Shown: positions 36,976 through 56,342, counted from the stretch's first letter. The stretch is DNA of 64,000 nucleotides from an uncultured Alphaproteobacteria bacterium (GCA_946625925.1 CAMOTP010000001.1:2770-66769); one strand, 5' to 3'. Notes: generated from the sequence alone by a model not told the origin. Made by a program: numbers and translations.

Positions 36976-37725
36976 ATGGAATATAAAAATGTTGTTTTGA
37001 AATTTGGTGGGTCGGTTATACCTGATGAAAATGGAATATATCAAGTTGCCAATATTATACAGAATTTGTCGTTAAAGTATAATGTAATGGCTGTGGTTGT
37101 GTCTGCTATGGGTAAGACGACAAATAATTTAGATGCATTGGCTCATCGGGTTGAAAAAAATCCAAATGTTCGTGAATTAGATGCTTTGTTGGCAACTGGT
37201 GAAATGCAGTCTGTGGCTTTGTTATCGATGCGATTAAATGGTATAGGGGTTCCTGCGGTAGGATACAATGCATATCAATGTAAAATTGAAACAGATGATA
37301 ATTTTGGAAATGCTAAAATTCGGCATATGGGTATGGAACACATAAATCATTTGTATGGGATGCCAATTATTGCAGGTTTTCAGGGTATAACAGAACGTGG
37401 TGAAATCACAACATTGGGGCGTGAGGGTTCGGATATTTCAGCGGTTATGATTGCAGTGGCATGTGGTGCAGATTTTTGTTGGTTTTTCAAGGACGGTGGT
37501 GGAATTTATGATAAAAACCCAAATAAAGAACCAGATGCTCGTTTGTTTAGGAAAATATCATATACAAAAATGTTAGATTTATTGAATCAGGGGCGCGGTC
37601 AAGTTTTACATAAAAGTAGTGTCAGTTTGGCACAAGAATACAAAATGCCTTTGTTTGTATCAGGTATGAAAAATCCAGATGTTGGGACAATGATTGTTCC
37701 ACGTGTTCACAGTAAAACATATTAA
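36976..37725 (+). CDS. aspartokinase-like amino-acid kinase, catalytic domain only (no ACT domains)
   Basis: VLKFGGS, VVVSAMGKTTNNL, ITTLGREGSDISA motifs; only 249 aa. Confidence 0.6.
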   Translation: MEYKNVVLKFGGSVIPDENGIYQVANIIQNLSLKYNVMAVVVSAMGKTTNNLDALAHRVEKNPNVRELDALLATGEMQSVALLSMRLNGIGVPAVGYNAYQCKIETDDNFGNAKIRHMGMEHINHLYGMPIIAGFQGITERGEITTLGREGSDISAVMIAVACGADFCWFFKDGGGIYDKNPNKEPDARLFRKISYTKMLDLLNQGRGQVLHKSSVSLAQEYKMPLFVSGMKNPDVGTMIVPRVHSKTY

Positions 37726-37752
37726 ATTTTTATCATATTTTGTGCTTTTTTG

Positions 37753-37761
37753 TGGTATAAT
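37753..37761 (+). promoter_or_regulatory. extended -10 element (TGgTATAAT) upstream of LRR paralog 1
   Basis: TGTGGTATAAT ~25 nt upstream of ATG 37787. Confidence 0.4.
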
Positions 37762-37786
37762 CCCTGTGATAAGAAATGGAATTTTT

Positions 37787-39277
37787 ATGGCAGAAGTAAA
37801 TACAGATGCAGTTTATAAAAAAATAAAAAAACAAAATGGCGAGGGTGTTGCCAAAGTAATCCGCGAAGCGGTGTTGTTGGACGTGCCAAATATTGTGCAT
37901 ATTTTGGAATTTGCTGGAAATAACCCAAATGAAGTGCAAGAACTGGTTCCGATTATTCGTGAAATTTATAAAACGCAGAAAAAATCAGAGTACAAAACAG
38001 ATAAAAATCCATTGGAATTATTATCAGATGCGGGATATGATGCTTTTGTCGTAGAAAATGCAGAACAAAAAAATTCAATTAAGAAATATTTTCGGTCGGG
38101 TGAAGAATTATGCACATTTGGTGACCCACATCGTCATGAAAATTATTATATAATTCATGCAGTTAAACGTGGTGCTGATAAAATAAAACCATCAGATAAT
38201 CCAGAACGTCAGGATGAATATGGAACGTCCGTTATATCAATCCAAATTGCAAAAGATGGTGGTTTTATATCAATAAAAAATCGGTATAACCATACAGTAA
38301 ATAATCCTGACAATACGTTTGATAGTAATCCAGATAAAATTATTCCTGGACTAACGAATTCTTTGAAAAGATATTTTCATGTGTTCTTTAATACCGCAGA
38401 AAGTGAAATGCCAGACAATTTTCGTATGGTGAATGATCGGTTGGTACGATATAATTATGAAATACATAATATTTATTTTGGACCTGATTATTATTTTTCA
38501 GGCAGTGAAATTACCAGATTAAACAATGATTATGAATTGATGTTGGATTGTTTTATTTTGGATACGCGAAATGGGAAAATACAAAATCCAGCAGAATTAA
38601 ATTCTTGGAATTATCCAGTGGATACGACATATAGATTACTTGTTGATTTGTTACAAGAAAAGAAATTAAAGGTTAAGTTAAATCCGGATAATAAAAAAGA
38701 AAAAATTGTGTTGGTTGATGGAATTGATTTGATGCATGTGATGAATGGACAAATGACAGAATTGTTTTTGCCAGGAATTAAAAAAACAGATCATGATTTG
38801 TTCGGTTTTGCATATGGATTAAAAAAACTGAGTATGCCTGATGTTCGTGCAATTGGTGATAATTTTTTACTGGGAAATACTGTGTTGGATTCGTTATATA
38901 TGCCAAAATTACAACGAACCGGTAAAGATTTTTTAACTGGTAATCAAAATTTGTCCGAATTAAATTTGCCTGAATTGGTTGATATGGGTCAGTATTCTTT
39001 GCAAAACAATCATAATTTGGTTTCTATAAATTGTCCAAAGGTTGAATGGTTGGGACATTTGAGTTCTGACCAACCAAGATTAAAGTATTTTTATGCGCCA
39101 TATTTAGATCATAATCAATTGGAATGGTTTGTGCGAAGTGCAGTTCAAAATGAAAATTATGAAATTGCTTTCGCTATAGCAAAAGAGAAAGTTCATCAAA
39201 AAATAGATGCGATGACTGACGATGCAAAATTTCATATCGCCTTTTTGCACAAGAAATATCAGGCAAACAACGAATAA
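37787..39277 (+). CDS. leucine-rich-repeat (BspA-type) protein, paralog 1
   Basis: N-terminal ~200 aa nearly identical to paralog 2 (VYKKIKKQNGEGVAKVIREAVLLDVPNIVHILEFAGNNP...); C-terminal LRR-like repeats L..L.MP.L...G..FL..N. Confidence 0.7.
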   Translation: MAEVNTDAVYKKIKKQNGEGVAKVIREAVLLDVPNIVHILEFAGNNPNEVQELVPIIREIYKTQKKSEYKTDKNPLELLSDAGYDAFVVENAEQKNSIKKYFRSGEELCTFGDPHRHENYYIIHAVKRGADKIKPSDNPERQDEYGTSVISIQIAKDGGFISIKNRYNHTVNNPDNTFDSNPDKIIPGLTNSLKRYFHVFFNTAESEMPDNFRMVNDRLVRYNYEIHNIYFGPDYYFSGSEITRLNNDYELMLDCFILDTRNGKIQNPAELNSWNYPVDTTYRLLVDLLQEKKLKVKLNPDNKKEKIVLVDGIDLMHVMNGQMTELFLPGIKKTDHDLFGFAYGLKKLSMPDVRAIGDNFLLGNTVLDSLYMPKLQRTGKDFLTGNQNLSELNLPELVDMGQYSLQNNHNLVSINCPKVEWLGHLSSDQPRLKYFYAPYLDHNQLEWFVRSAVQNENYEIAFAIAKEKVHQKIDAMTDDAKFHIAFLHKKYQANNE

Positions 39278-39291
39278 GAAAGGGAATTTTT

Positions 39292-40854
39292 ATGGTAGAA
39301 ATTGATACAAATGCGGTTTATAAACAATTAAAAAAACAAAATGGCGAGGGTGTTGCCAAAGTAATCCGCGAAGCGGTGTTGTTGGATGTACCAAATATTG
39401 TGCATATTTTGGAATTTGCTGGGAATAATCCAGATGAAGCACGTGCGTTAATTCCTTTTATTCGTGAACGTTATAAAGCCAAAACAAAATCAGAAATTTT
39501 TGTAGATAAAAATCCGTTGGAATTGTTAAGTGATGCTGGATATGATGCGTTTGTTGTAGAAAACGAAGCACAAAAAAATTCAATTAAAAAATATTTCCGG
39601 TCGGGCGAAGAGTTATGCACTTTTAGTGATCCCGATAGGCATAAAAAATTTTATATGATTCACGCGGTTAAACGTGGTGCTGATAAAATTAAACCGGCGG
39701 CAAATCCGATGCGTCAAGATGAATATGGAACGTCTGTTATATCAATTCAAATTGCCAAAGAGGGCGGTTTTATATCAATAAAAAATCGTTATAACCATAC
39801 GGTGAATGACCCAGATGCAACATTTAGTAATTATCCTGATTTCATTATTCCAGGGCTAACAAATTCATTAAGACAATTTTTTAATGTTGATTTTGATGTG
39901 ACAGAAAGTTTGTTGCCAAATGGTTTTTGTTCTATTAACGGACAAATATTTAAATTTAATTACAGAATATGGGGAAGCATTCCGGGAAAGACGGAGTCTG
40001 GATATTATGGATATGGTGATGGTTTTTATTTTTATGGCGATAATGTTATAAAATTAAATCGTGATTATGAAATAATGCTGGAAAATTATGTCTTGAATCT
40101 TCGTGAAGGGACATTAAAGGATTTGATAAGACATGCATCCAAAGGCCCAACTGAATTTGAACAACAACGGCATCAAAGAAAATTGGAAACCAGGATTTTA
40201 TTAGAAAGGTTTTTCAAGGGTAAAAATATAAAAGTCACTATTAATTCAGAAAATAAACATGAAAAAATTATATCTGCGGATGGTGTTTGGGTGGCCAAGG
40301 TTGTTGATGGCAAAATGATTGAACTGAATTTACCAAATATTACAGAAGTTGGAGATGATTTTTTAAATGATGCCGGACATTTAAAAAAATTGTATATGCC
40401 AGATTTGGAAAAAGCAGGTAAAATGTTTTTGTGGAATGTTTATTCAATAACACAGGTGCATTTGCCAAACTTAAAAGAGGTTGGCTATTCGTTTATACCT
40501 AATGGTGCGTTGAGCCAAATAGAATTACCAAGTTTAAAACGATGTGGTGATGGATTTTTGGAACATAATAATTCTTTGACGGAATTGTATTTGCCAGAAT
40601 TACAATATGCCGATGGTAGGGAATTTTTACCTGACAATTGTGTGTTGCGTCGTTTGGATTTGCCTAAATTGAAAAAGATACCAGAATGGTTTTTATTAAA
40701 GAACACAGTTCTGGAATATTGTAATTTGCCCAGTGTGCAGAAATCTGATAGTAAAAAATTACGGCATGTGCGGTATGTTGTTGCCAAAAATAAATTAAAA
40801 TCTGGATTAAAAAGGGTGTTTTTACCGCAGAAAGCGCAAAGTTATAGTAAATAA
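39292..40854 (+). CDS. leucine-rich-repeat (BspA-type) protein, paralog 2
   Basis: Same conserved N-terminal domain; divergent middle; ~23-aa LRR units (LPNITEVGDDFL..., LPNLKEVGYSFIP..., LPSLKRCGDGFLEHNNSL...). Confidence 0.7.
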   Translation: MVEIDTNAVYKQLKKQNGEGVAKVIREAVLLDVPNIVHILEFAGNNPDEARALIPFIRERYKAKTKSEIFVDKNPLELLSDAGYDAFVVENEAQKNSIKKYFRSGEELCTFSDPDRHKKFYMIHAVKRGADKIKPAANPMRQDEYGTSVISIQIAKEGGFISIKNRYNHTVNDPDATFSNYPDFIIPGLTNSLRQFFNVDFDVTESLLPNGFCSINGQIFKFNYRIWGSIPGKTESGYYGYGDGFYFYGDNVIKLNRDYEIMLENYVLNLREGTLKDLIRHASKGPTEFEQQRHQRKLETRILLERFFKGKNIKVTINSENKHEKIISADGVWVAKVVDGKMIELNLPNITEVGDDFLNDAGHLKKLYMPDLEKAGKMFLWNVYSITQVHLPNLKEVGYSFIPNGALSQIELPSLKRCGDGFLEHNNSLTELYLPELQYADGREFLPDNCVLRRLDLPKLKKIPEWFLLKNTVLEYCNLPSVQKSDSKKLRHVRYVVAKNKLKSGLKRVFLPQKAQSYSK

Positions 40855-40857
40855 GTT

Positions 40858-42633
40858 ATGCAACAAAAGAATGAAAAATCTTTGAAAGATAAAAAAGAAA
40901 TGCAAGAAAAGCCATCTTTTCAACGACGTTTTTTTGTATGCGTATTTAATTTGTTTTTAATATCTGTTGTGTTTATTTGTGGTTATGTTGGTGTTGTGTA
41001 TTTGCGTATGCCTTCGTTGGATGCGATATTGCATGAAACGCGTTTGCCTACAATTGTTTTTCTGGATAATACAGGGAAAGAAATTCGCAGTTCTAATCGT
41101 ATTATGGGGACCCCGGTCAGTGTTGATACATTGCCACCACATGTATGGCAGGCGATTGTTGCAATCGAAGATAAACGATTTTTTGAACATGGACCCATTG
41201 ATATGCGTTCGACGGCACGTGCACTGTTTGTTAATTTGTTCAAAGGACGTTTTGCAGCAGGTGGTTCCACTATTACACAACAGACAGCGAAAAATATATT
41301 CTTGTCACGCGACAAGAAAATTTCTCGTAAGGTTCAAGAGTTAATTTTGTCCCAATGGTTAGAAAATCGTTTTTCTAAAAATCAAATTCTGGATTTGTAT
41401 ATGAATAGGGTTTCGTTGGTTGGTGGAATGCGTGGAATTGATGCGGTGGCGCGGACTATGTTTGGGGTATCTGCGCGTGATTTATCTGTGGCACAATCTG
41501 CGCAAATTGCGGCGATGTTAAAAGCACCAACATTATATAGCCCACTAAAAAATCCGGATAAAAATATTGCACGTTCACGTGTCATTTTGGCAGAAATGGT
41601 GCGCCAAAAATATATTTCATTAGATACAGCAAGAAGTGCGGCGGCGGAATTAAAACCAGCGGTCGGTGCGCGTGATACAAATATATATCGTTATTGGACA
41701 GATTATGTAATGGAAGAATTAGATTCTGTTGTTGGCGGATTGGATAGTGATGTTTATGTTTATACCACTTTGGATAAAAAAATACAAGAACGTGTTGCCG
41801 CGGTTTTGCCAAGGCATACTGGTGAATACCAGGGGGCTGTTTTGGTTATGGAACGTGGTGGCGCGTTGTTGGCAATGGCTGGTGGGGCAGATTACCAGAC
41901 AAGTCAGTTTAATAGGACATTGGCGATGCGTCAACCCGGCAGTGCGTTTAAGCCTGTTGTGTATTTAATGGCGTTGGAAAATGGATTAACACCAGATTCT
42001 TATGTTAATGATTCCAGGTTTGCGGTTGGTGATTATAACCCTAAAAATTATAATGAACATTATTATGGTGATATTCCTTTGTCGATGGCGTTTGCAAAAA
42101 GTGTTAATTCGGTGCCGGTTAAGTTAACCAAGATTTATGGAATTGATTCTGTGTTGGATATGGCTGGACGTTTAGGGGTTGGAACAAAGTTAAAACGCGA
42201 ATATTCAACTGTTTTGGGTGGCAGTGAAATGACATTATTGGATTTAACAAATATGTATGCTGTGATTTGGAATAATGGGCAATCAGTGCGTCCGTATTCC
42301 ATTACAAAAATAGTAAAACCAGATGGAACGGTTTTATATGAAAGGAATCCATCAGAACCTATCCAAGTTTTAAAACAAAATACAGTTGATGCAATGACTG
42401 AATTGTTGGCTGATGTTGTGGCAAATGGTGGAACAGGACATCGTGCGGCAGCCCCCGGTGTATTGGGTGGAAAAACAGGAACCAGTAATGATAATAGGGA
42501 TGCATGGTTTGTTGGTGCGACCGACAAAAATATAATTGGTGTTTGGGTTGGAAACGATGATTTTTCGCCTATGTCATCCAAAATAACAGGCGGAACTGTG
42601 CCTGCGGAAATATTTCATGATATCGTTAAATAA
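40858..42633 (+). CDS. mrcA: bifunctional penicillin-binding protein (GT51 transglycosylase + transpeptidase), PBP1A family
   Basis: GT51 motifs EDKRFFEH, GGSTITQQ; transpeptidase SAFKP, SVN, KTGT; N-terminal TM. Confidence 0.85.
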   Translation: MQQKNEKSLKDKKEMQEKPSFQRRFFVCVFNLFLISVVFICGYVGVVYLRMPSLDAILHETRLPTIVFLDNTGKEIRSSNRIMGTPVSVDTLPPHVWQAIVAIEDKRFFEHGPIDMRSTARALFVNLFKGRFAAGGSTITQQTAKNIFLSRDKKISRKVQELILSQWLENRFSKNQILDLYMNRVSLVGGMRGIDAVARTMFGVSARDLSVAQSAQIAAMLKAPTLYSPLKNPDKNIARSRVILAEMVRQKYISLDTARSAAAELKPAVGARDTNIYRYWTDYVMEELDSVVGGLDSDVYVYTTLDKKIQERVAAVLPRHTGEYQGAVLVMERGGALLAMAGGADYQTSQFNRTLAMRQPGSAFKPVVYLMALENGLTPDSYVNDSRFAVGDYNPKNYNEHYYGDIPLSMAFAKSVNSVPVKLTKIYGIDSVLDMAGRLGVGTKLKREYSTVLGGSEMTLLDLTNMYAVIWNNGQSVRPYSITKIVKPDGTVLYERNPSEPIQVLKQNTVDAMTELLADVVANGGTGHRAAAPGVLGGKTGTSNDNRDAWFVGATDKNIIGVWVGNDDFSPMSSKITGGTVPAEIFHDIVK

Positions 42634-42699
42634 ATTAGTATAAAAATCAGTTTTTTTATGACCGTTTTTATGATATAATTTATACACAAGTGAGTAGAG

Positions 42700-43662
42700 A
42701 TGAGTCGTTTCTTTCGTGGCTTTTTTATATTGACATTGTGTAGTTCTGTGATGCCTGCATTTGCTAATTGGCAGTATCCTGGACAGTATCAGCGCGATTC
42801 GTGGGCGGGTGATGATGGTATGCGTTTTGTGATGTCTTTGCGTGGTGGTATGGCGTATGGTAAGGGTTCAATTGCAAATGACATTGGGGGATTAACAGGT
42901 TCATATGTTAGAAATACTATTACCGGTGATATAGATACGCGTGCGTGGTTTAATGCGGCATATCCTAATGGTAATCCTGATTATGAAGATGCAGGTTATG
43001 GTCGTTTGGGTGATTTGCCCGCAGCAGAAAATTACAAGGCGGTTTCATTTATTGCGGGATTCAGTGCAGGGTTAACTATGCCGGATACACCACAATGGCG
43101 TGTGGAATTTGGTTTTGATCATATTGCCGAGGCCGATTATAATAAAAATCCATTATTTGATGGTTCGTTACATTTGACATCTGGGTATGTGGTTGATGCA
43201 CAAAGTGGTGGTGTTCAATCTTCGTTATCTACGGATGTGTACAGTGTTATGGCTTTTTATGATTTCTTTGACGGAATAAAAAAACCGGTCAGAACAATGA
43301 TTCCATATGTTGGGGCAGGTGTGGCATATGCTGATACAAAAACTATTTTGCAATTAACAGATTCTTATGGTGATTTGTCGGATGTTTATGAATTGCAAAA
43401 TTTTGGTATTGTTGATGAATATGGGGTTATAAAGTTTAATAAATCAGAAACACACAGTTCTAATTTTGCACCAATACTTTCGGTTGGTTTTTCTTATGGC
43501 GTAAATGACAGGGTGTTTTTAGATGCTGGTTTGCGCGGTATGTATATTTCCAAGGTTAAATGGCAATTAACCAGTTTGGATGATGAACGTCGTCGTGATT
43601 GGTTTAGTGCTGAAAAAATGATGTATATTACGGCTATATTTGGTATGCGTGTAGAGTTTTAG
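42700..43662 (+). CDS. outer-membrane beta-barrel protein
   Basis: Signal peptide ...MPAFA; alternating amphipathic strands; C-terminal ...MRVEF (terminal Phe). Confidence 0.6.
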   Translation: MSRFFRGFFILTLCSSVMPAFANWQYPGQYQRDSWAGDDGMRFVMSLRGGMAYGKGSIANDIGGLTGSYVRNTITGDIDTRAWFNAAYPNGNPDYEDAGYGRLGDLPAAENYKAVSFIAGFSAGLTMPDTPQWRVEFGFDHIAEADYNKNPLFDGSLHLTSGYVVDAQSGGVQSSLSTDVYSVMAFYDFFDGIKKPVRTMIPYVGAGVAYADTKTILQLTDSYGDLSDVYELQNFGIVDEYGVIKFNKSETHSSNFAPILSVGFSYGVNDRVFLDAGLRGMYISKVKWQLTSLDDERRRDWFSAEKMMYITAIFGMRVEF

Positions 43663-43714
43663 AAAATAATACTTGCATTTGTAAAAAAATTATGTCATTA
43701 TAGTCGCACGATAC

Positions 43715-43791
43715 GCGAGCGTAGCTCAGTTGGCTAGAGCGCAACCTTGCCAAGGTTGAGGTCGAGGGTTCGAGCCCCTTTGCTCGCACCA
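43715..43791 (+). tRNA. tRNA-Gly (anticodon GCC)
   Basis: GCGAGCG acceptor, D-loop AGCTCAGTTGGCTAGAGC, anticodon loop TTGCCAA, GGTTCGAGCCC T-arm, ACCA 3' end. Confidence 0.9.
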
Positions 43792-43802
43792 GAATTTTAG
43801 AA

Positions 43803-43845
43803 AACACCCGTTTGGGTGTTTTTTTGATTCTGTCGACAAAGGGGT
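43803..43845 (+). repeat. terminator-like repeat copy 1 (ACACCC-N4-GGGTGT + T7 ... CAAAGGGG)
   Basis: ACACCCGTTTGGGTGTTTTTTT; shares stem and CAAAGGGG tail with copies at 43931 and 49123. Confidence 0.65.
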
Positions 43846-43930
43846 GAGAACCCGCAGGGTTGCGAGGCGAGGTTATGAAATAACCGAAGTACTTTGCGAA
43901 GCCCAAAGTTTTAACACCCGAAAGGGTGTT

Positions 43931-43967
43931 TTTTTATTGGCAAAGGGGCGATATCGGGCCCCGCAAA
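43931..43967 (+). repeat. terminator-like repeat copy 2 (left boundary of accessory segment)
   Basis: ACACCCGAAAGGGTGTTTTTTTATTGGCAAAGGGG. Confidence 0.65.
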
Positions 43968-44092
43968 ATTCTGAAATTTTGTGGGTGATTAGTTCCGCAG
44001 GATGGCGAAATGCTTTTTTGTCCAAAATTCTTGATATTTCAGTTTTTTTTGATATTTTTACTGTGGGTATAGTGATTAAAAAGGGTAATGAA

Positions 44093-44755
44093 ATGACAAG
44101 AAATGAAGTGTTATGTAAAGTTCTTGAAATTGTAAATGAGCATAAAGCACACAACTTTCCAGAAGCCACAGAGAACAGCCGGTTTGCCGAAGATTTGGGA
44201 ATGGATTCGTTTGATATAGTTGAAACTTGTTGGGATATACAACGCGTCTTATTAGATATTGATTTTGATTATGATGATTGGGATGCTATCAAATTTAATA
44301 CTACATCAGTTAAAGATGTGGTAAATTTAGTATGTAAAAATTTAAATATTCCGGTTAATAATGCCGAAAAAAAATCAAATCTGAAATTAAATATGTTATA
44401 CCCAATTATTGCGGGGTTGTTGTTTACGGGATGTGGTTTTGTTGAATGCAAGGACAATGTTGTTGTGGTGCCTGGAAAAAATAAAATCATTGTCAAAGAT
44501 GTCAAAGACGGTCAGGAAAGAATATTTTTTACAAATAAATCAGATAACCGTTTTCAGGGGCTGAATGTTGGTGATACCATCAACGTGCGCAGACGCAGAG
44601 GTTATGGTGATTATGATTATTATAGAGTTTTTGATGATGATAACAAGTATATCCATATTGATGTGAATGATTTACATGTTGTGCGAGAAAAATTTAGATT
44701 TGATTCTATTAAAAACGCGATGTTAAGGGACAGTGTTGCACAAAACAAAAGATAA
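44093..44755 (+). CDS. acyl-carrier-protein-like domain fused to a lipoprotein-like C-terminal domain
   Basis: N-terminal FAEDLGMDSFDIVE resembles the ACP phosphopantetheine-site DLGADSLD; internal MLYPIIAGLLFTGC lipobox-like segment in the same frame; RBS AAGGG before ATG 44093. Confidence 0.5.
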   Translation: MTRNEVLCKVLEIVNEHKAHNFPEATENSRFAEDLGMDSFDIVETCWDIQRVLLDIDFDYDDWDAIKFNTTSVKDVVNLVCKNLNIPVNNAEKKSNLKLNMLYPIIAGLLFTGCGFVECKDNVVVVPGKNKIIVKDVKDGQERIFFTNKSDNRFQGLNVGDTINVRRRRGYGDYDYYRVFDDDNKYIHIDVNDLHVVREKFRFDSIKNAMLRDSVAQNKR

Positions 44756-44770
44756 AAGGGGGTATAAGAT

Positions 44771-45100
44771 ATGAAACGCAAACAAATTCAATATGCGCAA
44801 CCATATAAAATTCGCAGTGTTCAAAGTGTTTTTAATGCGGATAATGGTGTTGCAGGATATGATGTAGAGGTTTGTTTTAACGGAACCACAAATATTCCAC
44901 AACCTCGTTGGGCGGATCCTGAAAATATCTATGCGTACCAAGATGTTAACGCGGGAACCAGTCGTGTGGTTTATTATTTCCCTTTTGTTGGACATGGTGT
45001 AATAAACTGGGGCAAGATTGCGGCAAAACATTGGTTCAGAAAAATGCTGAAACAAATGGGGACATGTGTTGTGTTTGACGCGCAGGGTAATCAAAGATAA
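44771..45100 (+). CDS. small hypothetical protein A of the tandem array
   Basis: 109 aa; preceded by junction motif AAAAGATAAAAGG; ends ...GNQR. Confidence 0.5.
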   Translation: MKRKQIQYAQPYKIRSVQSVFNADNGVAGYDVEVCFNGTTNIPQPRWADPENIYAYQDVNAGTSRVVYYFPFVGHGVINWGKIAAKHWFRKMLKQMGTCVVFDAQGNQR

Positions 45101-45111
45101 AAGGTAATAAA

Positions 45112-45450
45112 ATGTCTGAATGGGGTATTGAACAACACAGTACTTTTGGAAATGCCGGCGGTTGTTTTGTCGATTGTCTTTCTTGTGTTGGTGCAGTCGC
45201 GATTATTGTTGGATTGGCAACTATTGATAGCAAGCAAGATAAACCAAGAGCAAAAGATAAAGCGCAACCAAAAGTGGAATCTGTTGAACAAAATGCCGTT
45301 GCTATTCCTCGGGATACGGCGATGTTTGTTCCTGCAAATGATGCGGTCTTTCGTGATATAGAAAAGCAAAACGAATTTTTGTTGCAAAAAACCGCCCGCG
45401 AAATAAACGAAATCGACAGATTATCACGTATGCACAGCCACACAAGATAA
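45112..45450 (+). CDS. small hypothetical protein B of the tandem array (one predicted TM helix)
   Basis: 112 aa; hydrophobic CLSCVGAVAIIVGLATI; junction motif upstream. Confidence 0.5.
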   Translation: MSEWGIEQHSTFGNAGGCFVDCLSCVGAVAIIVGLATIDSKQDKPRAKDKAQPKVESVEQNAVAIPRDTAMFVPANDAVFRDIEKQNEFLLQKTAREINEIDRLSRMHSHTR

Positions 45451-45464
45451 AAAAGGAAACAATC

Positions 45465-45938
45465 ATGGCAGATATTCCAAATACAGAATACATTACAATT
45501 AACAAAGACGGAATTTTCGTTGGTGGAAAACCTGCAGAAACATATCGAGGTGAGGAAATATTGTTGCTGAATGGTGTGCAAAAAAATTTTGCAGATATCC
45601 AAAGATTAAATGAAACCGTTGCAGAATTGCATGTGTTGTCATCGGAAACACGTGGTGAATATGTCAAGGTGGGTAATCCATCAGGAAACCATGGCCAAAA
45701 TGCATGGTGTCGGGTAAAATTTAATGATGGGCGTGTTGCTTCGTGGGTGTTCTGCAACGCGTACAGTTCGGCGGCCAATTGTGCGTTCTACTGTGCGTAC
45801 GTCTGCGCGGGCAACGTTCGCGGGTTTGCGAACTTCCGTTCGGCGGTGTTGGGTGCGGTTGATAAAGAAAAAACACCACAAACACCAATAAACCCTGTTG
45901 TGGTTGCTGCAAACAACAACGCACAAAACAAAAGATAA
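45465..45938 (+). CDS. small hypothetical protein C of the tandem array (Cys-rich; paralog of E)
   Basis: 157 aa; shares YITINKD.FVGGKPA..YRG.EI...LSSETRGEY.VGNPS..HG.NAWCR.KFN.G.V..WVF with E; last 19 nt identical to the ACP-like gene end. Confidence 0.55.
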   Translation: MADIPNTEYITINKDGIFVGGKPAETYRGEEILLLNGVQKNFADIQRLNETVAELHVLSSETRGEYVKVGNPSGNHGQNAWCRVKFNDGRVASWVFCNAYSSAANCAFYCAYVCAGNVRGFANFRSAVLGAVDKEKTPQTPINPVVVAANNNAQNKR

Positions 45939-45950
45939 ACGGTTTATAAA

Positions 45951-46241
45951 ATGACAGAATCTGATATGACCCCAAATATAATTAAAAAGTTCGTAAAACG
46001 TATTACGTACGCACCTTATATATGCAAAATACCACGTCGTGGAATACAAGAAATAACATGTTATCCTGATGCAATAGTGCTTCACTTTAATGGAAAAAGA
46101 ATAGGATACTCTGAACGCGAAAAAACAATGATTGTTCTGCCGGGTGTTCGCGGAAAAGATGGTATATGTTCTGCTCAAACTGCTGTGGCAAACTATTTAT
46201 TACAAAAAAAGAAACGTGAACAAAAGATAAAAGGTTCGTAA
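45951..46241 (+). CDS. small hypothetical protein D of the tandem array
   Basis: 96 aa; junction motif variant AAAAGATAAACGG upstream. Confidence 0.45.
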   Translation: MTESDMTPNIIKKFVKRITYAPYICKIPRRGIQEITCYPDAIVLHFNGKRIGYSEREKTMIVLPGVRGKDGICSAQTAVANYLLQKKKREQKIKGS

Positions 46242-46242
46242 A

Positions 46243-46761
46243 ATGACAGATATTAAAAATACAGCATATATCACAATTAATAAAGATGATGTTTTTGTTG
46301 GTGGGAAACCGGCGATAAAATATCGTGGGGTAGAAATAGCGTGGACTGAATATTTATGGGAACATTTTGAAGCAATACAAAAAATGCATCCAGATATTAT
46401 GGAAATGCACGCCCTATCATCAGAAACACGTGGTGAATATTGCGTGGTTGGTAACCCGTCGGCAAAACACGGTTACAACGCATGGTGTCGTGCAAAATTT
46501 AATAATGGACATGTTTCCCCATGGGTGTTTGTTAGAGAGTGTGATTCAATGGATGAATGCGCAAGTCGTTGTGCATATCAAAGTCTGGATGGCTTTCGTA
46601 TTTCTGCACAAATGCGTTCTGCTGCTTTGGGGACACCAGATCATTTGATAAAGGTATTAAAAGACGTGGATTTATCTAACTGTGTTGGGAAACCTGTGCA
46701 ATTAAACGGTTATAAAATCATTGTTGAAAAAATTGCTGAAACACAACAAATCAAAAGATAA
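46243..46761 (+). CDS. small hypothetical protein E of the tandem array (paralog of C)
   Basis: 172 aa; see C. Confidence 0.55.
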   Translation: MTDIKNTAYITINKDDVFVGGKPAIKYRGVEIAWTEYLWEHFEAIQKMHPDIMEMHALSSETRGEYCVVGNPSAKHGYNAWCRAKFNNGHVSPWVFVRECDSMDECASRCAYQSLDGFRISAQMRSAALGTPDHLIKVLKDVDLSNCVGKPVQLNGYKIIVEKIAETQQIKR

Positions 46762-46774
46762 AAAGGGAAATAAA

Positions 46775-47146
46775 ATGTCTGGTTCATACAGTGTGTTTGA
46801 CGAAAATGGACACTATAAACCTGGAACTTATAATAACGGTTATGGGGCAAAGATAGGGTGGCCAACAGAAAAATATTCTAAACATGATGCCGGTGCTTTA
46901 GATAATCAATCCGGCAAAAAATCTGGTGGTGGTATCGGTATTGAATATGATTTTTTTGTTGTTTTTTGTTGTGCAGCAATTTTTTTGACCACTGTTATCT
47001 GTGTTGGTAATCCATTTGTTTGTGAACATAAAGATAATAAAAAAACAGAAAATACAAAAAATGTTGATAAAGTCAGTCATGATGAAAAATATAATAAATC
47101 AACATTGTTTATAACTTCTTGGGCATTAAATCAGAAAATTAAATGA
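46775..47146 (+). CDS. small hypothetical protein F of the tandem array (one predicted TM helix)
   Basis: Start MSGSYSVF after AAAAGATAAAAAGGG; hydrophobic FFVVFCCAAIFLTTVICV. Confidence 0.5.
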   Translation: MSGSYSVFDENGHYKPGTYNNGYGAKIGWPTEKYSKHDAGALDNQSGKKSGGGIGIEYDFFVVFCCAAIFLTTVICVGNPFVCEHKDNKKTENTKNVDKVSHDEKYNKSTLFITSWALNQKIK

Positions 47147-47161
47147 TAAAAAGGCAAACAA

Positions 47162-47500
47162 ATGTCAGGGGATTTTTATTGCATTATCGAACACGAACCA
47201 ATTGAAATACCGGTTGCAACAGTGACTGTTCCGCGGACAAAGCATAAAGAAAGTAAAGATAATGCATCACATAGTGGTGATGATTTTTCTTGTCCTTATG
47301 ATTTAAAATATTGTGTCGAAACGATAAATGCGTATCAAAAATTTGAAGAACGTGTTAGGAATGCTTTTGAAACAGGCAGTGAAGAATTGATTTTTCAACA
47401 AGATGGTTTTAGTGTTGATTGTCCACCGTGTGATGATGTGATGCGTGCGAATTGTGCGCGTTATAAAATTTGGTGCAAAGCGCAATGTAAACAAAAATAA
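47162..47500 (+). CDS. small hypothetical Cys-rich protein G of the tandem array
   Basis: 112 aa, 9 Cys incl. CPPCDD; junction variant AAATGATAAAAAGG upstream. Confidence 0.5.
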   Translation: MSGDFYCIIEHEPIEIPVATVTVPRTKHKESKDNASHSGDDFSCPYDLKYCVETINAYQKFEERVRNAFETGSEELIFQQDGFSVDCPPCDDVMRANCARYKIWCKAQCKQK

Positions 47501-47502
47501 AG

Positions 47503-47527
47503 AACCGGTCCATTTGGGCGGTTTTTT
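47503..47527 (+). terminator. rho-independent terminator ending the small-ORF array
   Basis: AACCGGTCCATTTGGGCGGTT + T6. Confidence 0.65.
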
Positions 47528-47543
47528 ATTATAATAATAATTA

Positions 47544-47571
47544 TTGACAATATTTTATTTTGTCTTATAAT
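47544..47571 (+). promoter_or_regulatory. sigma70-like promoter (TTGACA-16-TATAAT)
   Basis: TTGACA 47544-49, TATAAT 47566-71, ~30 nt upstream of ORF 47602. Confidence 0.4.
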
Positions 47572-47601
47572 TATAAGGGCAATTAAAAAAAAGGGTGAAA
47601 T

Positions 47602-47850
47602 ATGCAAAATAAATCTAGAAAAAGAATATTAAACAATAATACTCGTGATTGGTTGGCGTGTTTATTTGGTAGCGCAGGATTTATAGCGGTTTTATTGGCT
47701 GCTGGGACTGATGATTATCGTTTCAGTTCTGAATATAATCCTGAAAAAGATAAAATCGCCAGTACAGAAACCACCACAGCGATGGCATTGGGGGGAACGG
47801 CGGCATTGTTGGGCGCAACAATTTTGTTGGCAGGCAAGAAAGAATATTAA
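47602..47850 (+). CDS. small two-TM membrane protein (holin-like topology)
   Basis: 82 aa; two hydrophobic helices (LACLFGSAGFIAVLLAAG, MALGGTAALLGATILLAG); charged C-terminus. Confidence 0.45.
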   Translation: MQNKSRKRILNNNTRDWLACLFGSAGFIAVLLAAGTDDYRFSSEYNPEKDKIASTETTTAMALGGTAALLGATILLAGKKEY

Positions 47851-47874
47851 TCCAGATAATTACAGGGGGGTATC

Positions 47875-48336
47875 ATGGCAAGTACAGGTGCTATTACATC
47901 GCAGTATGTAAATTTCATCGGAAACGAAGTTGTCAATAAATTTGGTGGTTCTTACCAGACATATGAAAGTATGGGCAGATTGTGGCGTCAAAAAATGGAT
48001 TATAATCCAAAAGTTGAAGAATTTGCTGTTTCGCAATCTAAATTATTTTTAAGACTGTTGGATATTCGTGACCAAGGCAACTTTAATATGATGTATAAAG
48101 TTTGCTATAACATCGCAGAATATTTGTCAAAATATATTGTCAAAAAATCGCCAGAGTTAACCAGAGCAAAGGTTACAGATACATTGTTAGACGAGTTGTT
48201 TTTGCATTCTGACAGATTTGTTGCGAAATTTAACAAGGCTTATAAACGCCCGATTGATATGTCTGATACTAATTATGTGACATATAATCCAGGGGTTATT
48301 GCGATGTATAAAGCTATACATGGTACGCAACATTAA
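47875..48336 (+). CDS. hypothetical protein
   Basis: 153-aa ORF, no recognised domain. Confidence 0.4.
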   Translation: MASTGAITSQYVNFIGNEVVNKFGGSYQTYESMGRLWRQKMDYNPKVEEFAVSQSKLFLRLLDIRDQGNFNMMYKVCYNIAEYLSKYIVKKSPELTRAKVTDTLLDELFLHSDRFVAKFNKAYKRPIDMSDTNYVTYNPGVIAMYKAIHGTQH

Positions 48337-48349
48337 AAGGGATTTATTG

Positions 48350-49120
48350 ATGAGAACGTTTAATAACAAAGGCGTTTATGAATCACCATTTAAATATGAT
48401 CGTGATTTCAAGGTCAGAGTACGTTGTGATGGACTCGATTTACCAGAATATTGTGGCAATTGGAATCAGGCGGGTCATATTATTCCATATCCAGAAACTT
48501 TACAAACATATATTTTCCCACTTATAAGATCTGCGGGGCTGGGTGAAGATGGATTGCAATTCGAACGCGAATATATTGTAAGCAGTAAAAGACGCGGATT
48601 ATTATATCGTGGTGTTAGTAATTTGTTGAGGGCTTTGGATGATATGCCATCGCGTTCGTGGTCTGGAAATGGTTTAAGTTTTGGTGCACATTATCGTATC
48701 AAAAATGCCAAAGACTATGAAATTTTTCATGCAAAGATGCTTTATGATGATGGACCATATGGTGAAATAGAATTCGAAGTTGAATATTATGATTCAACTG
48801 CTTTGAAATATCGTTATGGTTGGCGCTGTTGGGATGATGAGAAATTTGTCTATGACCTGGATTATGCTGCGATGGATGCAACCACAGATATATTTGGTGT
48901 TTTAGAAAATGCAAAAACACGTTATCGTCCATCAAGTGTATTTTTTGACGTCGCTTCTTATATGCAAACTCCAAGATTTATGCGTCCACGCGGCAGTTTT
49001 TTAATTCCGTTATTGCCTGGCTCTAATGGGTTAGCGTCGCGCAGGGTGCGTCGTGTATTACACAAAATGAATTATTTGTGTGCGAAATACGAGTGGAATA
49101 AATATAATCAAGGTAGATAA
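48350..49120 (+). CDS. hypothetical protein
   Basis: 257 aa from internal ATG (MRTFNNKG) with AAAAGG RBS; no recognised domain. Confidence 0.45.
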   Translation: MRTFNNKGVYESPFKYDRDFKVRVRCDGLDLPEYCGNWNQAGHIIPYPETLQTYIFPLIRSAGLGEDGLQFEREYIVSSKRRGLLYRGVSNLLRALDDMPSRSWSGNGLSFGAHYRIKNAKDYEIFHAKMLYDDGPYGEIEFEVEYYDSTALKYRYGWRCWDDEKFVYDLDYAAMDATTDIFGVLENAKTRYRPSSVFFDVASYMQTPRFMRPRGSFLIPLLPGSNGLASRRVRRVLHKMNYLCAKYEWNKYNQGR

Positions 49121-49122
49121 AA

Positions 49123-49158
49123 AAACACCCATTTGGGTGTTTTTTTTGTTGGCAAAAG
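49123..49158 (+). repeat. terminator-like repeat copy 3 (right boundary of accessory segment)
   Basis: ACACCCATTTGGGTGTTTTTTTTGTTGGCAAAAG; matches copy 2 in stem, T-run and TTGGCAAA(G/A)G tail. Confidence 0.65.
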
Positions 49159-49202
49159 TCGCTATTTTGTTTATACTTTTTACGAAAGGCAAGGGGTGTA
49201 TC

Positions 49203-50312
49203 ATGACGCAAATATTATCCGAAGTGTATCTGGATTATTCTGATATTTTAATTAGACCAAAAATGGGTATAAACCTGAATTCGCGCAAAGATGTTAATTT
49301 ACAAAGATTATTCAAGTTTAAACATGGACAAACACGTACAGGTTTGGGCGTATTTAATGCTAATATGGCGACAGTTGGTAATTTTATTGTTGCAAAAAAA
49401 TTGTTGCAAAAAGGTATGTTTGCCACAATACACAAACATTATACTGTCGATGAAATAGGAAAGTTTTTCTTGGATGCTAAACAAGAAAATGTTCCATTGG
49501 ATAATCTGTTCGTGACGATTGGATTGAAAGATATAGACGGACAAATTCAAAAATTAAAAGAATTGGAATCTGGATATGGTTGGAAATCACCACGCAATAT
49601 CTGTATTGATGCCCCAAATTTTTATATTCAGAAGGCTTTGGATGTTTTGGCACGTGTCAGACAAGAATTCCCTGATGCGGTAATAATGGCTGGAAATATT
49701 GCCAGTTCGGATATTTGCCTTAAATTATTAGATTATGCCGATATTATAAAATGCGGTATTGGCAGTGGTTCTGCGTGTTTAACAAGAAAACAAACAGGTT
49801 GTGGAACACCAATGGTGTCGTTGATTTTAGAATGCGCGGATATTGCACATTCTGTGGGGGGGCATATTTGTGCGGATGGTGGTATTGTTGATGTTGGTGA
49901 TATTTGCAAGGCATTGTGTTTGAATTCTGATTTCGTTATGGCGGGCGGTATGTTTGCCGGTACAGACGAGGCCGAAGGACAAATTATCGAGAAAAATTAC
50001 GAAACATCTGAGATGTTTGATGGAAAACATGTTATTCAAACAAAGTGTTTCAAGGTGTATTATGGTATGTCTTCGGAATATGCAAATAATAAGTTTGCTG
50101 GTGGTATGGGGAATTATAAAACATCCGAAGGACGTGAATTGTTAATTCCATATACTGGTTCGATTGATAAAATTTTGCAAGATATCACTGGTGGAATTGC
50201 GTCATGTTGTACTTATATTGGTGCCGCTTCGGTTAAGCATATGTCAAAGTGTGCAACAATAATTCAGGTACACAATCAGTTAAATAAAGTGTTTGAAAAA
50301 TACTCGGTTTAA
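49203..50312 (+). CDS. guaC: GMP reductase (IMPDH/GMPR family)
   Basis: LDYSDILIRPK, CIDAPN, GIGSGSACLTR, YYGMSSE; collinear with E. coli GuaC. Confidence 0.85.
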   Translation: MTQILSEVYLDYSDILIRPKMGINLNSRKDVNLQRLFKFKHGQTRTGLGVFNANMATVGNFIVAKKLLQKGMFATIHKHYTVDEIGKFFLDAKQENVPLDNLFVTIGLKDIDGQIQKLKELESGYGWKSPRNICIDAPNFYIQKALDVLARVRQEFPDAVIMAGNIASSDICLKLLDYADIIKCGIGSGSACLTRKQTGCGTPMVSLILECADIAHSVGGHICADGGIVDVGDICKALCLNSDFVMAGGMFAGTDEAEGQIIEKNYETSEMFDGKHVIQTKCFKVYYGMSSEYANNKFAGGMGNYKTSEGRELLIPYTGSIDKILQDITGGIASCCTYIGAASVKHMSKCATIIQVHNQLNKVFEKYSV

Positions 50313-50359
50313 TTTGTTGGTTTTTCTGTTTTTTTGTTGACAATATACGTTTTTAGGCT

Positions 50360-50680
50360 ATGGTACAAAAAACAGGGGTGCCAGTTATGACGTATATTCG
50401 TAAACAACAAGAAAATTTTTTCGTATCACAAATTAAGTGGATTATGCAAATCCCAAATCCTGATGTTTATATTTTTCGGTTTATCGAAAAACAGGTCGTG
50501 CCGGTTGTAAAAATAATAGTGCATGCAGGTGTGCATCGTTTTGTGTTAGAAGAAATACCTGGTAATAGTTATAGTATTGATGTCGTTGTTGATAATCAAA
50601 AAATGTGGATTACATCATCAGATTGTGTGAATGACTTGTTGAATATAAAACAAAAATTGCTGCAATCATATGAAAAATAA
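50360..50680 (+). CDS. hypothetical small protein
   Basis: 106-aa ORF; no features. Confidence 0.3.
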   Translation: MVQKTGVPVMTYIRKQQENFFVSQIKWIMQIPNPDVYIFRFIEKQVVPVVKIIVHAGVHRFVLEEIPGNSYSIDVVVDNQKMWITSSDCVNDLLNIKQKLLQSYEK

Positions 50681-50877
50681 TATGAATTATGTAACAGGGG
50701 GCATATTTTTCTATCTGGGTAGAATGATTTGACAAAATTATATATAAATTATTACTGGACTTTTTATTTATTTCTGGTAATAATCTATTTCGTATTGGTA
50801 CCCATAAAATCGGGCAGGTAATTATGAAAAGTTTTTTTAAAAAATTTTGGAATTAATGGGTGCGATCTGGATTTATG

Positions 50878-50908
50878 ACGGACGCACTTGTTGGGCGTCC
50901 GTTTTTTA
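50878..50908 (+). terminator. intrinsic-terminator-like hairpin in the lysS leader
   Basis: ACGGACGCACTTGTTGGGCGTCCGT + T6, 25 nt before the lysS ATG; 10-codon uORF MKSFFKKFWN at ~50823-50855. Confidence 0.5.
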
Positions 50909-50930
50909 ATAACCATAAAAAGGAAAAACA

Positions 50931-52397
50931 ATGGCAGAAAACCAAACTATATCAACAAATGAATTAGAAGCCCGCCTGCAAAAGGCAGAAAATATCCGTT
51001 TACGTGATGGTGTTGTATGGAAAGATAAATTCGAACGGTCCCATAAAATATGCGATGCACGTAATTTAGAGGATGGTGCGGATGTTAAATTGTGTGGCCG
51101 TATTACTGCGTTGCGTTGGCTGGGTAAGTTGATGTTTGGTCGTATTTATGATATCGAAGGCGAAATTCAGTTTTCAATGTCTCGTGAAGAAATCGGTGAA
51201 GAAGATTACAAGTTTATGAAGGCTAATGTCGATATGGGTGATTTTATCGGTATTACTGGAACTTTGTATCATACAACCGCGGGTGAACTGACAGTTAAAG
51301 TGTCCAAATATGAGATCTTGGCCAAGGCATTGCGTCCTTTGCCAGAAAAATTCCATGGCTTGACGGATATGGAAACGCGTTATCGTCAACGTTATTTGGA
51401 TATTGTTTCTAATCCTGAATCCAGAAATGCATTGTTGGGACGTTTTAAATTAACACAAAATTTGCGTGATTTTATGAACAGGCATGACTTTTTGGAAATT
51501 GAAACACCAATTATGCAAAATATTGCATCAGGTGCAGCAGCAAGACCATTTACAACCCATCATAATGCATTGAATGCTGATTTCCAATTGCGTATTTCAC
51601 CGGAATTGTTCTTGAAGCAGGCTATTGGCGCAGGATTTGATAGAGTATATGAAGTTGCCAAAGACTTTCGTAACGAAGGTATGGATGCAATGCACTTACA
51701 AGAATTTACTATGATTGAGTGGTATGCAGCATATTGGGATTACAAGAAAAATATTCAATTTACTTGGGAAATGGTGCAAGAATTGATTATGAAAGCACGT
51801 GGGACTTTGCAAATCGAATATCAAGGAATTAAGTTAGATTTCAGTAAATATGAACTGATTGATTATACAGCCAAAATGAACGAATTGTTTGGTTGCAATA
51901 TTTTAGACTTTGATGATGTTAATGTGTTGCGTCAGAAATTGGTCGATATGGGTATGTTCCCAATGTCTGAATTAGAAGATTTAAATTCTTTGGCGACTTT
52001 GGTGGATTATGTTTATAAACGCAAGATACGTGTCAATATTGTTCAACCAACTTTCTTGTATAATTATCCAACATATATGGTGCCATTGGCACGTCGCAGT
52101 GATAAGGATGTTCGTTGCCTGGATATGTATCAGTTGTTGGTCGCAGGTGGCGAATTGTGTAAGGGATATTCTGAATTAGTTAATCCGATTCAACAGGCCA
52201 AGGCTTTCGAAGACCAGGCAAAAGATATTGCTAATGGCGAAGAAGAGGCATTTAATCCGGATAATGACTTTGTGCGTGCTATGGAACATGGTTTTCCACC
52301 AATTTCTGGGGTCGGTATGGGTATCGACAGATTGGCGATGATTGTATTTGATCAACCAACTGCGCGTGATATTGTTTTGTTCCCAATTATGAAATAA
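50931..52397 (+). CDS. lysS: lysyl-tRNA synthetase, class II
   Basis: OB-fold N-terminus, class II motifs (FRNEG, GGELCKGYSEL, GVGMGIDRL). Confidence 0.95.
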   Translation: MAENQTISTNELEARLQKAENIRLRDGVVWKDKFERSHKICDARNLEDGADVKLCGRITALRWLGKLMFGRIYDIEGEIQFSMSREEIGEEDYKFMKANVDMGDFIGITGTLYHTTAGELTVKVSKYEILAKALRPLPEKFHGLTDMETRYRQRYLDIVSNPESRNALLGRFKLTQNLRDFMNRHDFLEIETPIMQNIASGAAARPFTTHHNALNADFQLRISPELFLKQAIGAGFDRVYEVAKDFRNEGMDAMHLQEFTMIEWYAAYWDYKKNIQFTWEMVQELIMKARGTLQIEYQGIKLDFSKYELIDYTAKMNELFGCNILDFDDVNVLRQKLVDMGMFPMSELEDLNSLATLVDYVYKRKIRVNIVQPTFLYNYPTYMVPLARRSDKDVRCLDMYQLLVAGGELCKGYSELVNPIQQAKAFEDQAKDIANGEEEAFNPDNDFVRAMEHGFPPISGVGMGIDRLAMIVFDQPTARDIVLFPIMK

Positions 52398-55476: not shown

Positions 55477-55536
55477 TATATTGACAAAATAATATTTTGG
55501 TATTATATTGTATGCGTGATAACAAAAGGATTTATT

Positions 55537-56196: not shown

Positions 56197-56342
56197 AAAA
56201 CTTGATTTTATGATAAAAATGCTCTAATATATGCACCGCTGGGTAATCAGAACTGATTAAACTGCGGTGCTTTTTGGTCCCGTATGCGATAAGGATTCTG
56301 TAAAATATCTGGCACCGAAAAACCAAAAAAAAGGATAAAATT

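Follow-up and report, generated by a model that had tools for sequence, protein, structure and literature searches.

Organisation of the tRNA-Gly-to-guaC interval

The DNA analysed here (64,000 nt, hereafter the window) belongs to a rumen member of 'Candidatus Enterousia' (Alphaproteobacteria), and our subject is the accessory block of about 5.2 kb that separates its tRNA-Gly(GCC) gene from guaC, together with three similar hairpins, copies 1 to 3, that lie at and before the ends of this block. An earlier note on this DNA had suggested that copies 2 and 3 bracket a tRNA-associated island and are its att-like direct repeats, co-opted as or derived from terminators, or alternatively that the hairpins are members of a terminator family resembling repetitive extragenic palindromes (REP). 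'Candidatus Enterousia' comprises uncultured bacteria of gut and rumen, with genomes of ~0.75-1.0 Mb, in the order Rs-D84 (PMC12306168), and the contigs that carry identical proteins come from sheep and cattle rumen metagenomes. Relatives were collected by a protein scan with GuaC, one genome per species, which gave 63 loci that are mostly from 'Candidatus Enterousia' or rumen Alphaproteobacteria (numbered with the prefix L, as are the additional strains). Positions 42001-51000 of the window are 99.9% and not 100% identical to the rumen scaffold SHIW14-1 scaffold_312 (L001); the window therefore represents another assembly, or another strain, of this population.

The flanks of the block are core genes, as the earlier note had it: PBP1A (40858-42633) and a gene for an outer-membrane-protein-like (OMP-like) product lie upstream, and guaC, encoding GMP reductase (49203-50312; NF003470, E 6e-106), lies downstream. 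The features described here from the tRNA to guaC are all on the plus strand. The tRNA-Gly(GCC) gene occupies 43715-43791 (ARAGORN; Rfam tRNA, 65.9 bits), and the block begins 144 nt past it, in agreement with the ~140 nt first given. Between the tRNA and the block are copy 1 (43801-43825), a decayed repeat unit (43826-43905) and copy 2 with the short sequence that precedes it (43906-43935), followed by a truncated second unit (43936-44015). The first predicted operon (44031-47500) has a candidate promoter at 44031-44058 and starts with a gene (44093-44755) in which an acyl carrier protein (ACP)-like domain continues in frame into a lipoprotein-like tail; behind it come seven small open reading frames (ORFs) at 44771-45100, 45112-45450, 45465-45938, 45951-46241, 46243-46761, 46775-47146 and 47162-47500. 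It is closed by an internal terminator with a stem of its own, AACCGGTCC-ATTT-GGGCGGTTTTTT (47503-47527; -13.3 kcal/mol). The second operon (47544-49120) indeed has its own promoter, as had been noticed before, with the elements TTGACA-16-TATAAT (47544-47571; score 12/12), and comprises three genes, for a membrane protein of 82 aa with two helices (47602-47850), for a protein of 153 aa (47875-48336) and for one of 256 aa (48350-49120). Copy 3 (49121-49148) and the guaC promoter TTGGCA-17-TATACT (49149-49177) complete the interval.

Three copies of one terminator hairpin

The core ACACCC-N4-GGGTGT-T7 is found at 43804-43825, 43914-43935 and 49125-49146 and nowhere else in the 64 kb, with 0.00 copies expected by chance (100 shuffles). 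The three hairpins are thus real, although the position 43931 that had been given for copy 2 is 17 nt off and points at its T-run and tail. In full, copy 1 reads AAAACACCC-GTTT-GGGTGTTTTTTT, copy 2 is ACACCC-GAAA-GGGTGT-T7 preceded by AAGTTTTA, and copy 3 is A5-ACACCC-ATTT-GGGTGT-T8. They fold as terminator hairpins with -13.6, -10.7 and -14.4 kcal/mol for copies 1, 2 and 3, respectively (z = -4.4, -2.8 and -3.1). Each combines a G+C-rich stem, a short loop and a U-tract at the end of a transcription unit, and hence they are predicted to act as intrinsic terminators. A terminator scan found about ten further strong intrinsic terminators in the window, every one with a different stem, and we therefore take the three hairpins as a real repeat and not as the generic terminator of this genome. 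Copy 1 matches copy 3 in 24 of 25 nt (repeat family D5), and the match takes in the runs of A and T on either side as well as three bases of the four-base loop.

The tail after the hairpin is less uniform than had been described. TTGGCAAA(G/A)G follows copy 2 (43937-43946) and copy 3 (49149-49158) only, while copy 1 is followed by GATTCTGTCGACAAAGGGG. Moreover, the tail of copy 3 coincides with the -35 region of the guaC promoter, and this promoter can be aligned with those of guaC in three other species (L029, L032 and L050). The positions of the hairpins also agree with termination: copy 1 stands 9 nt past the tRNA, in a place that is occupied by a terminator in relatives as well, and copy 3 begins right behind the stop codon of the 256-aa gene. 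Across species the terminator stems covary (helix 1 of the repeat alignment). In all ten same-species contigs copy 3 is present, together with the 256-aa gene and the guaC promoter.

Distribution of the hairpin among relatives

A census of the hairpin was made in 1.13 Mb (the window and the 63 species loci), of which the gaps between tRNA-Gly and guaC make up only 114 kb. Of the 32 sites that it yielded, 23 stand immediately behind tRNA-Gly(GCC) or behind a duplicate of the 14 nt at its 3' end, CTTTGCTCGCACCA. Six more lie elsewhere within the tRNA-Gly-to-guaC gaps, one follows guaC and two are found elsewhere. The arrangement seen at copy 2, in which the tRNA fragment is followed by AAGTTTTA and the hairpin, recurs identically in four loci (L012, L048, L051 and L074). 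This distribution indicates that the hairpin is the terminator of tRNA-Gly, tied to the locus, and does not form a genome-wide family.

The REP-like alternative can be weighed at this point. If the hairpin were a generic or REP-like terminator family of the genome, its presence at both ends of the block would be uninformative. Identical hairpins do end unrelated genes in relatives (pyrG at L022:5477, and also at L033:15143 and L056:3716) and guaC itself (L073:8579), and terminators with a stem as short as 6-8 bp evolve easily. Against this stand the mere three copies in 64 kb, all at one locus and among about a dozen strong terminators with otherwise unique stems, and the concentration of 29 of the 32 sites in 10% of the sequence searched, at or within the tRNA-Gly-to-guaC interval, with three in the remaining ~1.0 Mb. 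A dispersed family like REP or the bacterial interspersed mosaic elements (BIME), or a genome-wide terminator family, was not found in this non-exhaustive census, and we consider such an origin extremely improbable. A broader look at cargo flanked by matching terminators, made with a strict hairpin finder that missed imperfect stems, gave mixed cases.

A tRNA-linked repeat unit between copies 1 and 2

The sequence between copies 1 and 2 corresponds to a conserved unit of ~105 nt downstream of tRNA-Gly (e.g. L046:2835-3049 and L039:9653-9877). Direct extraction gave this unit in 23 species loci, and a covariance model gave it in about 37 loci, 14 of which lie outside the seed alignment. The unit consists of a terminator, GCAAAGGGGCGAG, an optional AACCCGNAGGG, TTGCGAGGCGAG, a small hairpin, CGAAGTA, the 14-nt tRNA 3' end and a second terminator, and the terminators at both ends hence make it a dual-terminator arrangement. 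In an alignment of 24 units (A1) the small hairpin shows compensatory changes in five of its six pairs, and overall 98% of the cells are paired, versus ~38-51% when the partners are slid by 1-3 columns. This hairpin of 5-6 bp occurs in about 14 different sequences with the pairing kept in all of them. Among the 26 intact units from the 23 species loci, 25 end in the exact last 14 nt of tRNA-Gly, and the remaining one (L023) has a single mismatch.

The window's own unit is decayed. It reads (GA)CAAAGGGGTGAG-AACCCGCAGGG-TTGCGAGGCGAG, followed by the hairpin GGTTATGAAATAACC, GAAGTA and the tRNA 3' fragment CTTTGCgaagcCCA (43892-43905), in which 9 of the 14 nt are kept; the covariance model (R1) still finds it with 99.9 bits at 43793-43905. 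A second unit, beginning with ATTGGCAAAGGGGCGA, is truncated (partial R1 match at 43906-43961, 33.6 bits) and carries a palindromic insert, CCCCGCAAAATT-CTGA-AATTTTGTGGG, at 43959-43985. An Rfam search of 43500-44200 gave no family besides the tRNA and none for the unit. The truncated variant with the palindrome is also present in L069 and L076. The palindrome CCCCGCAAAATT-N4-AATTTTGTGGG was seen within the repeat unit in three genomes (the window, L069:~1720-1750 and L076:~3700-3725) and within a terminator hairpin in L084:~9705-9745; to judge from these differing insertion places, it behaves like a putative miniature mobile insert.

The unit may be a small RNA or a decoy attachment site, and the conservation of its small hairpin fits a role at the RNA or the DNA level. 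As a decoy, it may divert integrases and the GIY-YIG element described below from an essential single-copy tRNA; insertions behind the duplicated fragment, and not behind the tRNA itself, are found in L027, L072, L055 and L069.

The hotspot and its integrase islands in relatives

A tRNA-Gly(GCC) gene or fragment is found upstream of guaC in 49 of the 63 species loci, at distances from 0.12 to 9.9 kb. In loci that also have PBP1A and the OMP-like gene, the latter is 0.33 (L049), 0.76, 0.77, 2.6, 3.5, 4.3, 4.4 or 8.5 kb (L069) away from guaC. The minimal state is seen in L032, with the guaC promoter directly behind the tRNA terminator. On the evidence of these loci the tRNA-Gly-to-guaC gap is a genus-wide hotspot, and this part of the earlier proposal stands.

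Genuine islands occur here in several species. In L057 an 8.4-kb island has a tyrosine integrase beside the tRNA (PF00589, E 2.9e-13) and a displaced tRNA fragment at its far end, which is the standard signature of tRNA-gene islands, with the regenerated tRNA at one end and the displaced 3' fragment at the other (PMC4383910). L044 holds a truncated copy of the L057 integrase and a restriction-modification pair, and islands related to those of L057 and L044 are found in L027, L072 and L069. All five have as their direct repeat the 16-19 nt with which the tRNA ends, (CC)CTTTGCTCGCACCA(AAG), and the last 14-19 nt of tRNA-Gly (CTTTGCTCGCACCA) form the att core of these islands. They share a left end, ..AATCCGGGCGTTTGCACCGGATTTTT.., and a right end, ..GGCTAAAAATGGTCAAATGCGTTCCC. 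The islands of L027 and L072 entered at the duplicated fragment and not at the tRNA. The hairpin behind the right-hand island repeat is mere chromosomal sequence; it accompanies the repeat only because it is the terminator of the tRNA.

A second kind of element targets the same tRNA 3' end. This is a GIY-YIG gene of 79 aa (PF01541, E 1.3e-14) with a structured leader, inserted exactly after ...GCTCGCACCA (...CACCA). It lies behind the tRNA itself in L041:5743-6100 and behind the duplicated fragment in L055:9485-9800 and from L069:7993 onwards.

The block of the window is not a single island

The 5.2-kb block might be one integrative island beside tRNA-Gly that has lost its integrase, with copies 2 and 3 as att-like direct repeats doubling as terminators. 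Copies 2 and 3 do share the hairpin, the T-run and TTGGCAAA-G over ~35 nt, the locus is a proven integration hotspot in relatives, and the block is missing from other species. L048 moreover equals L049 with the addition of a gene between two identical hairpins. However, true islands at this locus repeat the tRNA 3' end, and neither of their conserved ends was found in the window within 3 mismatches. Nor is there a second copy of the tRNA 3' fragment (CTTTGCTCGCACCA) in the window within 2 mismatches, the sole match being the tRNA itself; the decayed fragment at 43892-43905 is proximal and not distal, unlike an Islander endpoint. The tail at copy 3, moreover, is the conserved guaC promoter.

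The absence of an integrase from the block, already observed in the earlier note, was borne out: none of its 11 proteins has a recombinase domain in Pfam, PHROGs or NCBIfam, and no integrase remnant was seen. The nearest one, the tyrosine recombinase at 57022-57984, resembles XerC/D, and L033 has a counterpart of it among the same neighbouring genes. The composition of the block, for which that note had proposed a check, does not deviate. Its tetranucleotide distance to the window is 0.123, where all segments of 5.2 kb average 0.134, its GC content is 0.366 versus 0.374, and its G+C content at third codon positions (GC3) is 0.276 versus 0.285.

A close relative, L083, bears on the same question. 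On this rumen scaffold of 175 kb the 153-aa gene has 94% identity with its counterpart in the window, and the order is tRNA-Gly, terminator, unit, fragment, terminator, a promoter as in window 47528-47600, the 82-aa gene, the 153-aa gene, terminator, guaC promoter and guaC. Relative to the window, 43936-47500 (the truncated unit and the ACP-led array) and 48338-49120 (the 256-aa gene) are missing, while 47516-48337 is kept; the array and the 256-aa gene therefore represent separate indels. In L083 the tRNA fragment is directly followed by AAACCGTTCGAAAGGGCGGTTTTTT and the same downstream promoter sequence, and the window terminator at 47503-47527 is the positional homologue of the second tRNA-Gly terminator there. 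Two independent indels with different terminators at the inner boundaries are not what one island would leave.

Variation between strains points in the same direction. L076 is common to the window up to 44227 and then diverges, whereas L003 is common from 47136 onwards and diverges leftward, with the break exactly at a gene junction. These strains differ only within the array, and the block is not present or absent as one unit, as an Islander island would be. The right end is kept in all ten same-species contigs; no empty site was seen among them, and two exact-pattern scans of JGI metagenome contigs gave neither an empty site nor extra strain alleles. The ACP-led array is missing from this position in every other species locus and is in this sense lineage-specific. 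We consequently hold it highly improbable that the block is a single island, and the idea that the hairpins are the att repeats of one is given up.

A probable patchwork with copies of the tRNA terminator

We favour, with a probability of roughly 0.7, the reading that the repeats are copies of the tRNA-Gly(GCC) terminator and that the 5.2 kb are a patchwork in a tRNA-linked hotspot, and not one island that made the repeats. Copy 1 would terminate the tRNA, and copies 1 and 2 would flank a decayed copy of a genus-conserved element of ~105 nt that resembles tRNA-linked repeats. Copy 3 would act as a terminator in both directions, closing the last cargo operon and shielding the guaC promoter; it most probably arose locally as a paralogue of the tRNA terminator, by descent from a tandem array or by gene conversion. 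The 5.2 kb would then consist of modules with separate histories, i.e. the strain-variable, ACP-led array of orphan genes, the pair of 82-aa and 153-aa genes, and the 256-aa gene, each module being closed by its own terminator. Their content probably changes by recombination among conserved flanks, terminators and repeated gene junctions, and integrase islands and the GIY-YIG element would also enter the hotspot, at the tRNA 3' end or at a duplicated fragment.

Several points weigh against this reading. The genome-wide copy number of the hairpin is extrapolated from 64 kb and from loci of relatives that are all centred on guaC. The exchange of cargo by recombination is probable but something that we infer, and the direction of each indel, a gain here or a loss in L083, is likewise suggested by distribution. 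The model R1 detects only the hairpin and the T-run in copy 3 and scores it at 25.1 bits, close to the 24.9 bits of an unrelated terminator at 13791. Furthermore, the positional homologue of copy 3 in L083, AAAACCGCC-TAAAT-GGGCGGTTTT, has a different stem (CCGCC/GGCGG). Together with the hairpins that end unrelated genes, such as pyrG, these last two results make convergence possible.

Copy 3 could accordingly be an independently evolved terminator with a chance match of its stem, and only copies 1 and 2 would be related by duplication. The stem in L083 implies that this terminator has changed over time, R1 treats copy 3 like unrelated terminators, and no tRNA fragment precedes it. Nevertheless, the 24 of 25 nt shared with copy 1 include the runs of A and T as well as three loop bases out of four, and by our own estimate the chance that a 6-nt stem core matches among about a dozen terminators is ~1%. 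In addition, the guaC-side stem is of the same type as the tRNA-side stem in three loci: ACACCC in all copies in the window and in L048, and the CCG..C/GGGCGG type on both sides in L083. Such matching stem types at the two ends suggest local homogenisation. An independent origin of copy 3 therefore seems unlikely, and we retain its derivation from the tRNA terminator.

Two wider readings are conceivable. In one the unit is functional, as a decoy site or as a small RNA that is released from between the two terminators and ends in a copy of the tRNA acceptor 3' end. In the other the ACP-led array shuffles cassettes: its repeated nucleotide junction may allow orphan genes whose products act together with a carrier-protein domain to be swapped in a genome of <1 Mb. 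We regard these readings as speculative and rather unlikely.

Sites of continuing gene turnover are informative in small genomes (<1 Mb), and this locus is one of them, with integrase islands, a GIY-YIG element and orphan gene arrays gathered downstream of a single tRNA-Gly gene. For genome scans the lesson is that similar terminators flanking an accessory block are not attachment sites by default.

Comparison with known systems

The unit is reminiscent of the tRNA-linked repeats and dual-terminator small RNAs of E. coli (Egan & Landy 1978, Rudd 1999, as described in PMC8144298). Like the E. coli repeats, it comes right behind a tRNA gene and shares its orientation, is present as one to three copies in tandem and ends with the tRNA's own 3' end, over 14 nt here versus 18-19 bp in E. 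coli (PMC8144298), an identity that is exact in the 25 of 26 intact units mentioned above. Its position between two terminators resembles that of the small RNAs rrA, rrB and rrF between T1 and T2 (PMC8144298). In contrast, the present units belong to an Alphaproteobacteria lineage (Rs-D84), have no sequence similarity to the E. coli repeats and no match in Rfam, and the terminator itself is part of what is duplicated in them; in the window, moreover, the unit is a decayed one.

With the tRNA-gene islands catalogued by Islander (PMC4383910) the locus shares the hotspot at a tRNA 3' end and, in relatives, a tyrosine integrase by the regenerated tRNA, a displaced fragment at the far end, and restriction-modification and other accessory cargo. 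The block of the window differs in having no integrase, no displaced distal fragment and no conserved ends, and in not being gained or lost as a unit.

Variable gene islets that lie between conserved flanks and are exchanged by homologous recombination form a more general category. The block resembles them in its conserved flanks (to the left tRNA-Gly and the unit, to the right the segment from the 112-aa gene to guaC), in content that varies by strain and species, in its native composition and in the lack of a dedicated recombinase. What sets it apart is the unusual regularity of its array, in which orphan ORFs have a common ACP-like leader and a junction of 25 nt recurs; an exchange by recombination is presumed in the present case.

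Integron-like cassettes were likewise considered for the array. An integron requires IntI and attI, and the attC sites between its cassettes are imperfect inverted repeats of 57-141 bp. Neither an IntI nor an attC site is present, the XerC/D-like gene is far below the cut-offs for integron integrases, and the gaps of 1-15 nt between the ORFs rule such cassettes out. Loci of this kind are well known; new among them are this particular repeat unit and this array of orphan genes.

Cargo genes and the junctions of the array

The first ORF of the array has an ACP-like N-terminal domain with a DLGMDS motif, which matches NCBIfam ACP models with E 9e-8 (below the cut-off) and PHROG 5934 with E 2e-4. 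The domain is joined to differing C-terminal parts: a lipobox-like tail (LFTGC) in the window, an unrelated tail in strain L076 (L076:3834-4375), and elsewhere the domain of the 172-aa family or the last 35 residues of that family (P0024, P0093 and P0109). Each of the seven junctions of the array (44742-47162) contains AAAAGATAAAAGG-N5-AAAATG, which combines stop codon, ribosome-binding site and start codon, and the breakpoint of strain L003 at 47136 falls on one of them. A conserved C-terminal peptide signal (...QNKR) on the array proteins was tried as an explanation and rejected, as the 96-aa ORF (45951-46241) reads the motif in another frame (...EQKIKGS); the conservation is therefore at the nucleotide level.

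The 157-aa (45465) and 172-aa (46243) ORFs are paralogues with 54% identity. Their family has 24 close relatives among 5.8 billion clusters, and a profile search gave 481 clusters at 50% identity; members fused to a PP-binding (ACP) domain are P0093, P0109 and P0024. This recurrent fusion suggests that the array proteins may act together with a carrier domain. The 153-aa family has 20 relatives and the 256-aa family 14, all of them orphan. Searches of Pfam, PHROGs, PADLOC and NCBIfam for a function of the cargo gave only the sub-threshold acyl carrier protein matches of the first ORF. AlphaFold models were made for the 256-aa protein (mean predicted local distance difference test, pLDDT, 72.7) and for the 172-aa protein (pLDDT 88.4); Foldseek matched neither of them to PDB at E <= 0.001, nor the latter to BFVD. 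No relatives of the 172-aa and 256-aa families that would point to a phage origin were found in IMG/VR. A match of the 109-aa ORF to a P3 capsid protein was weak (E 0.0028, below the cut-off) and was dismissed.

The modules of the second operon have different distributions, for the 82-aa and 153-aa genes are present in L083 and the 256-aa gene is missing there. The 256-aa gene is found elsewhere around guaC or tRNA-Gly, namely in L012, L079, L080, L081 and L084 to L087. In L079 (7015-10681) and L080 the order is a radical-SAM gene, the 256-aa gene, a ClpP-like gene and guaC; in L081:6760-8756 the 256-aa gene is directly downstream of guaC; and in L084-L087 (L084:10001-11425) it lies beside tRNA-Gly, with guaC missing from the region.

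Variable sites in the neighbourhood

Two other places in the window also vary among relatives. Upstream of PBP1A there are two tandem paralogues, 52% identical, with BspA-type leucine-rich repeats (37694-39277 and 39292-40854), and the number and position of such genes differ among relatives. A second variable slot, at 56197-56342 in the window, lies between a 219-aa gene (55516-56196) and rpsD (56343-56975). In relatives or another strain it is filled (L002:7607-8083, L050:5122-6444, L012:18559-19047, L033:18738-19482 and L083:15472-16794) with one or two genes of the 157/172-aa, 112-aa or 109-aa families. At their C-terminal ends these genes repeat the tail of the 219-aa gene that precedes them (..LKNRQYQ / ..LKNRQH).

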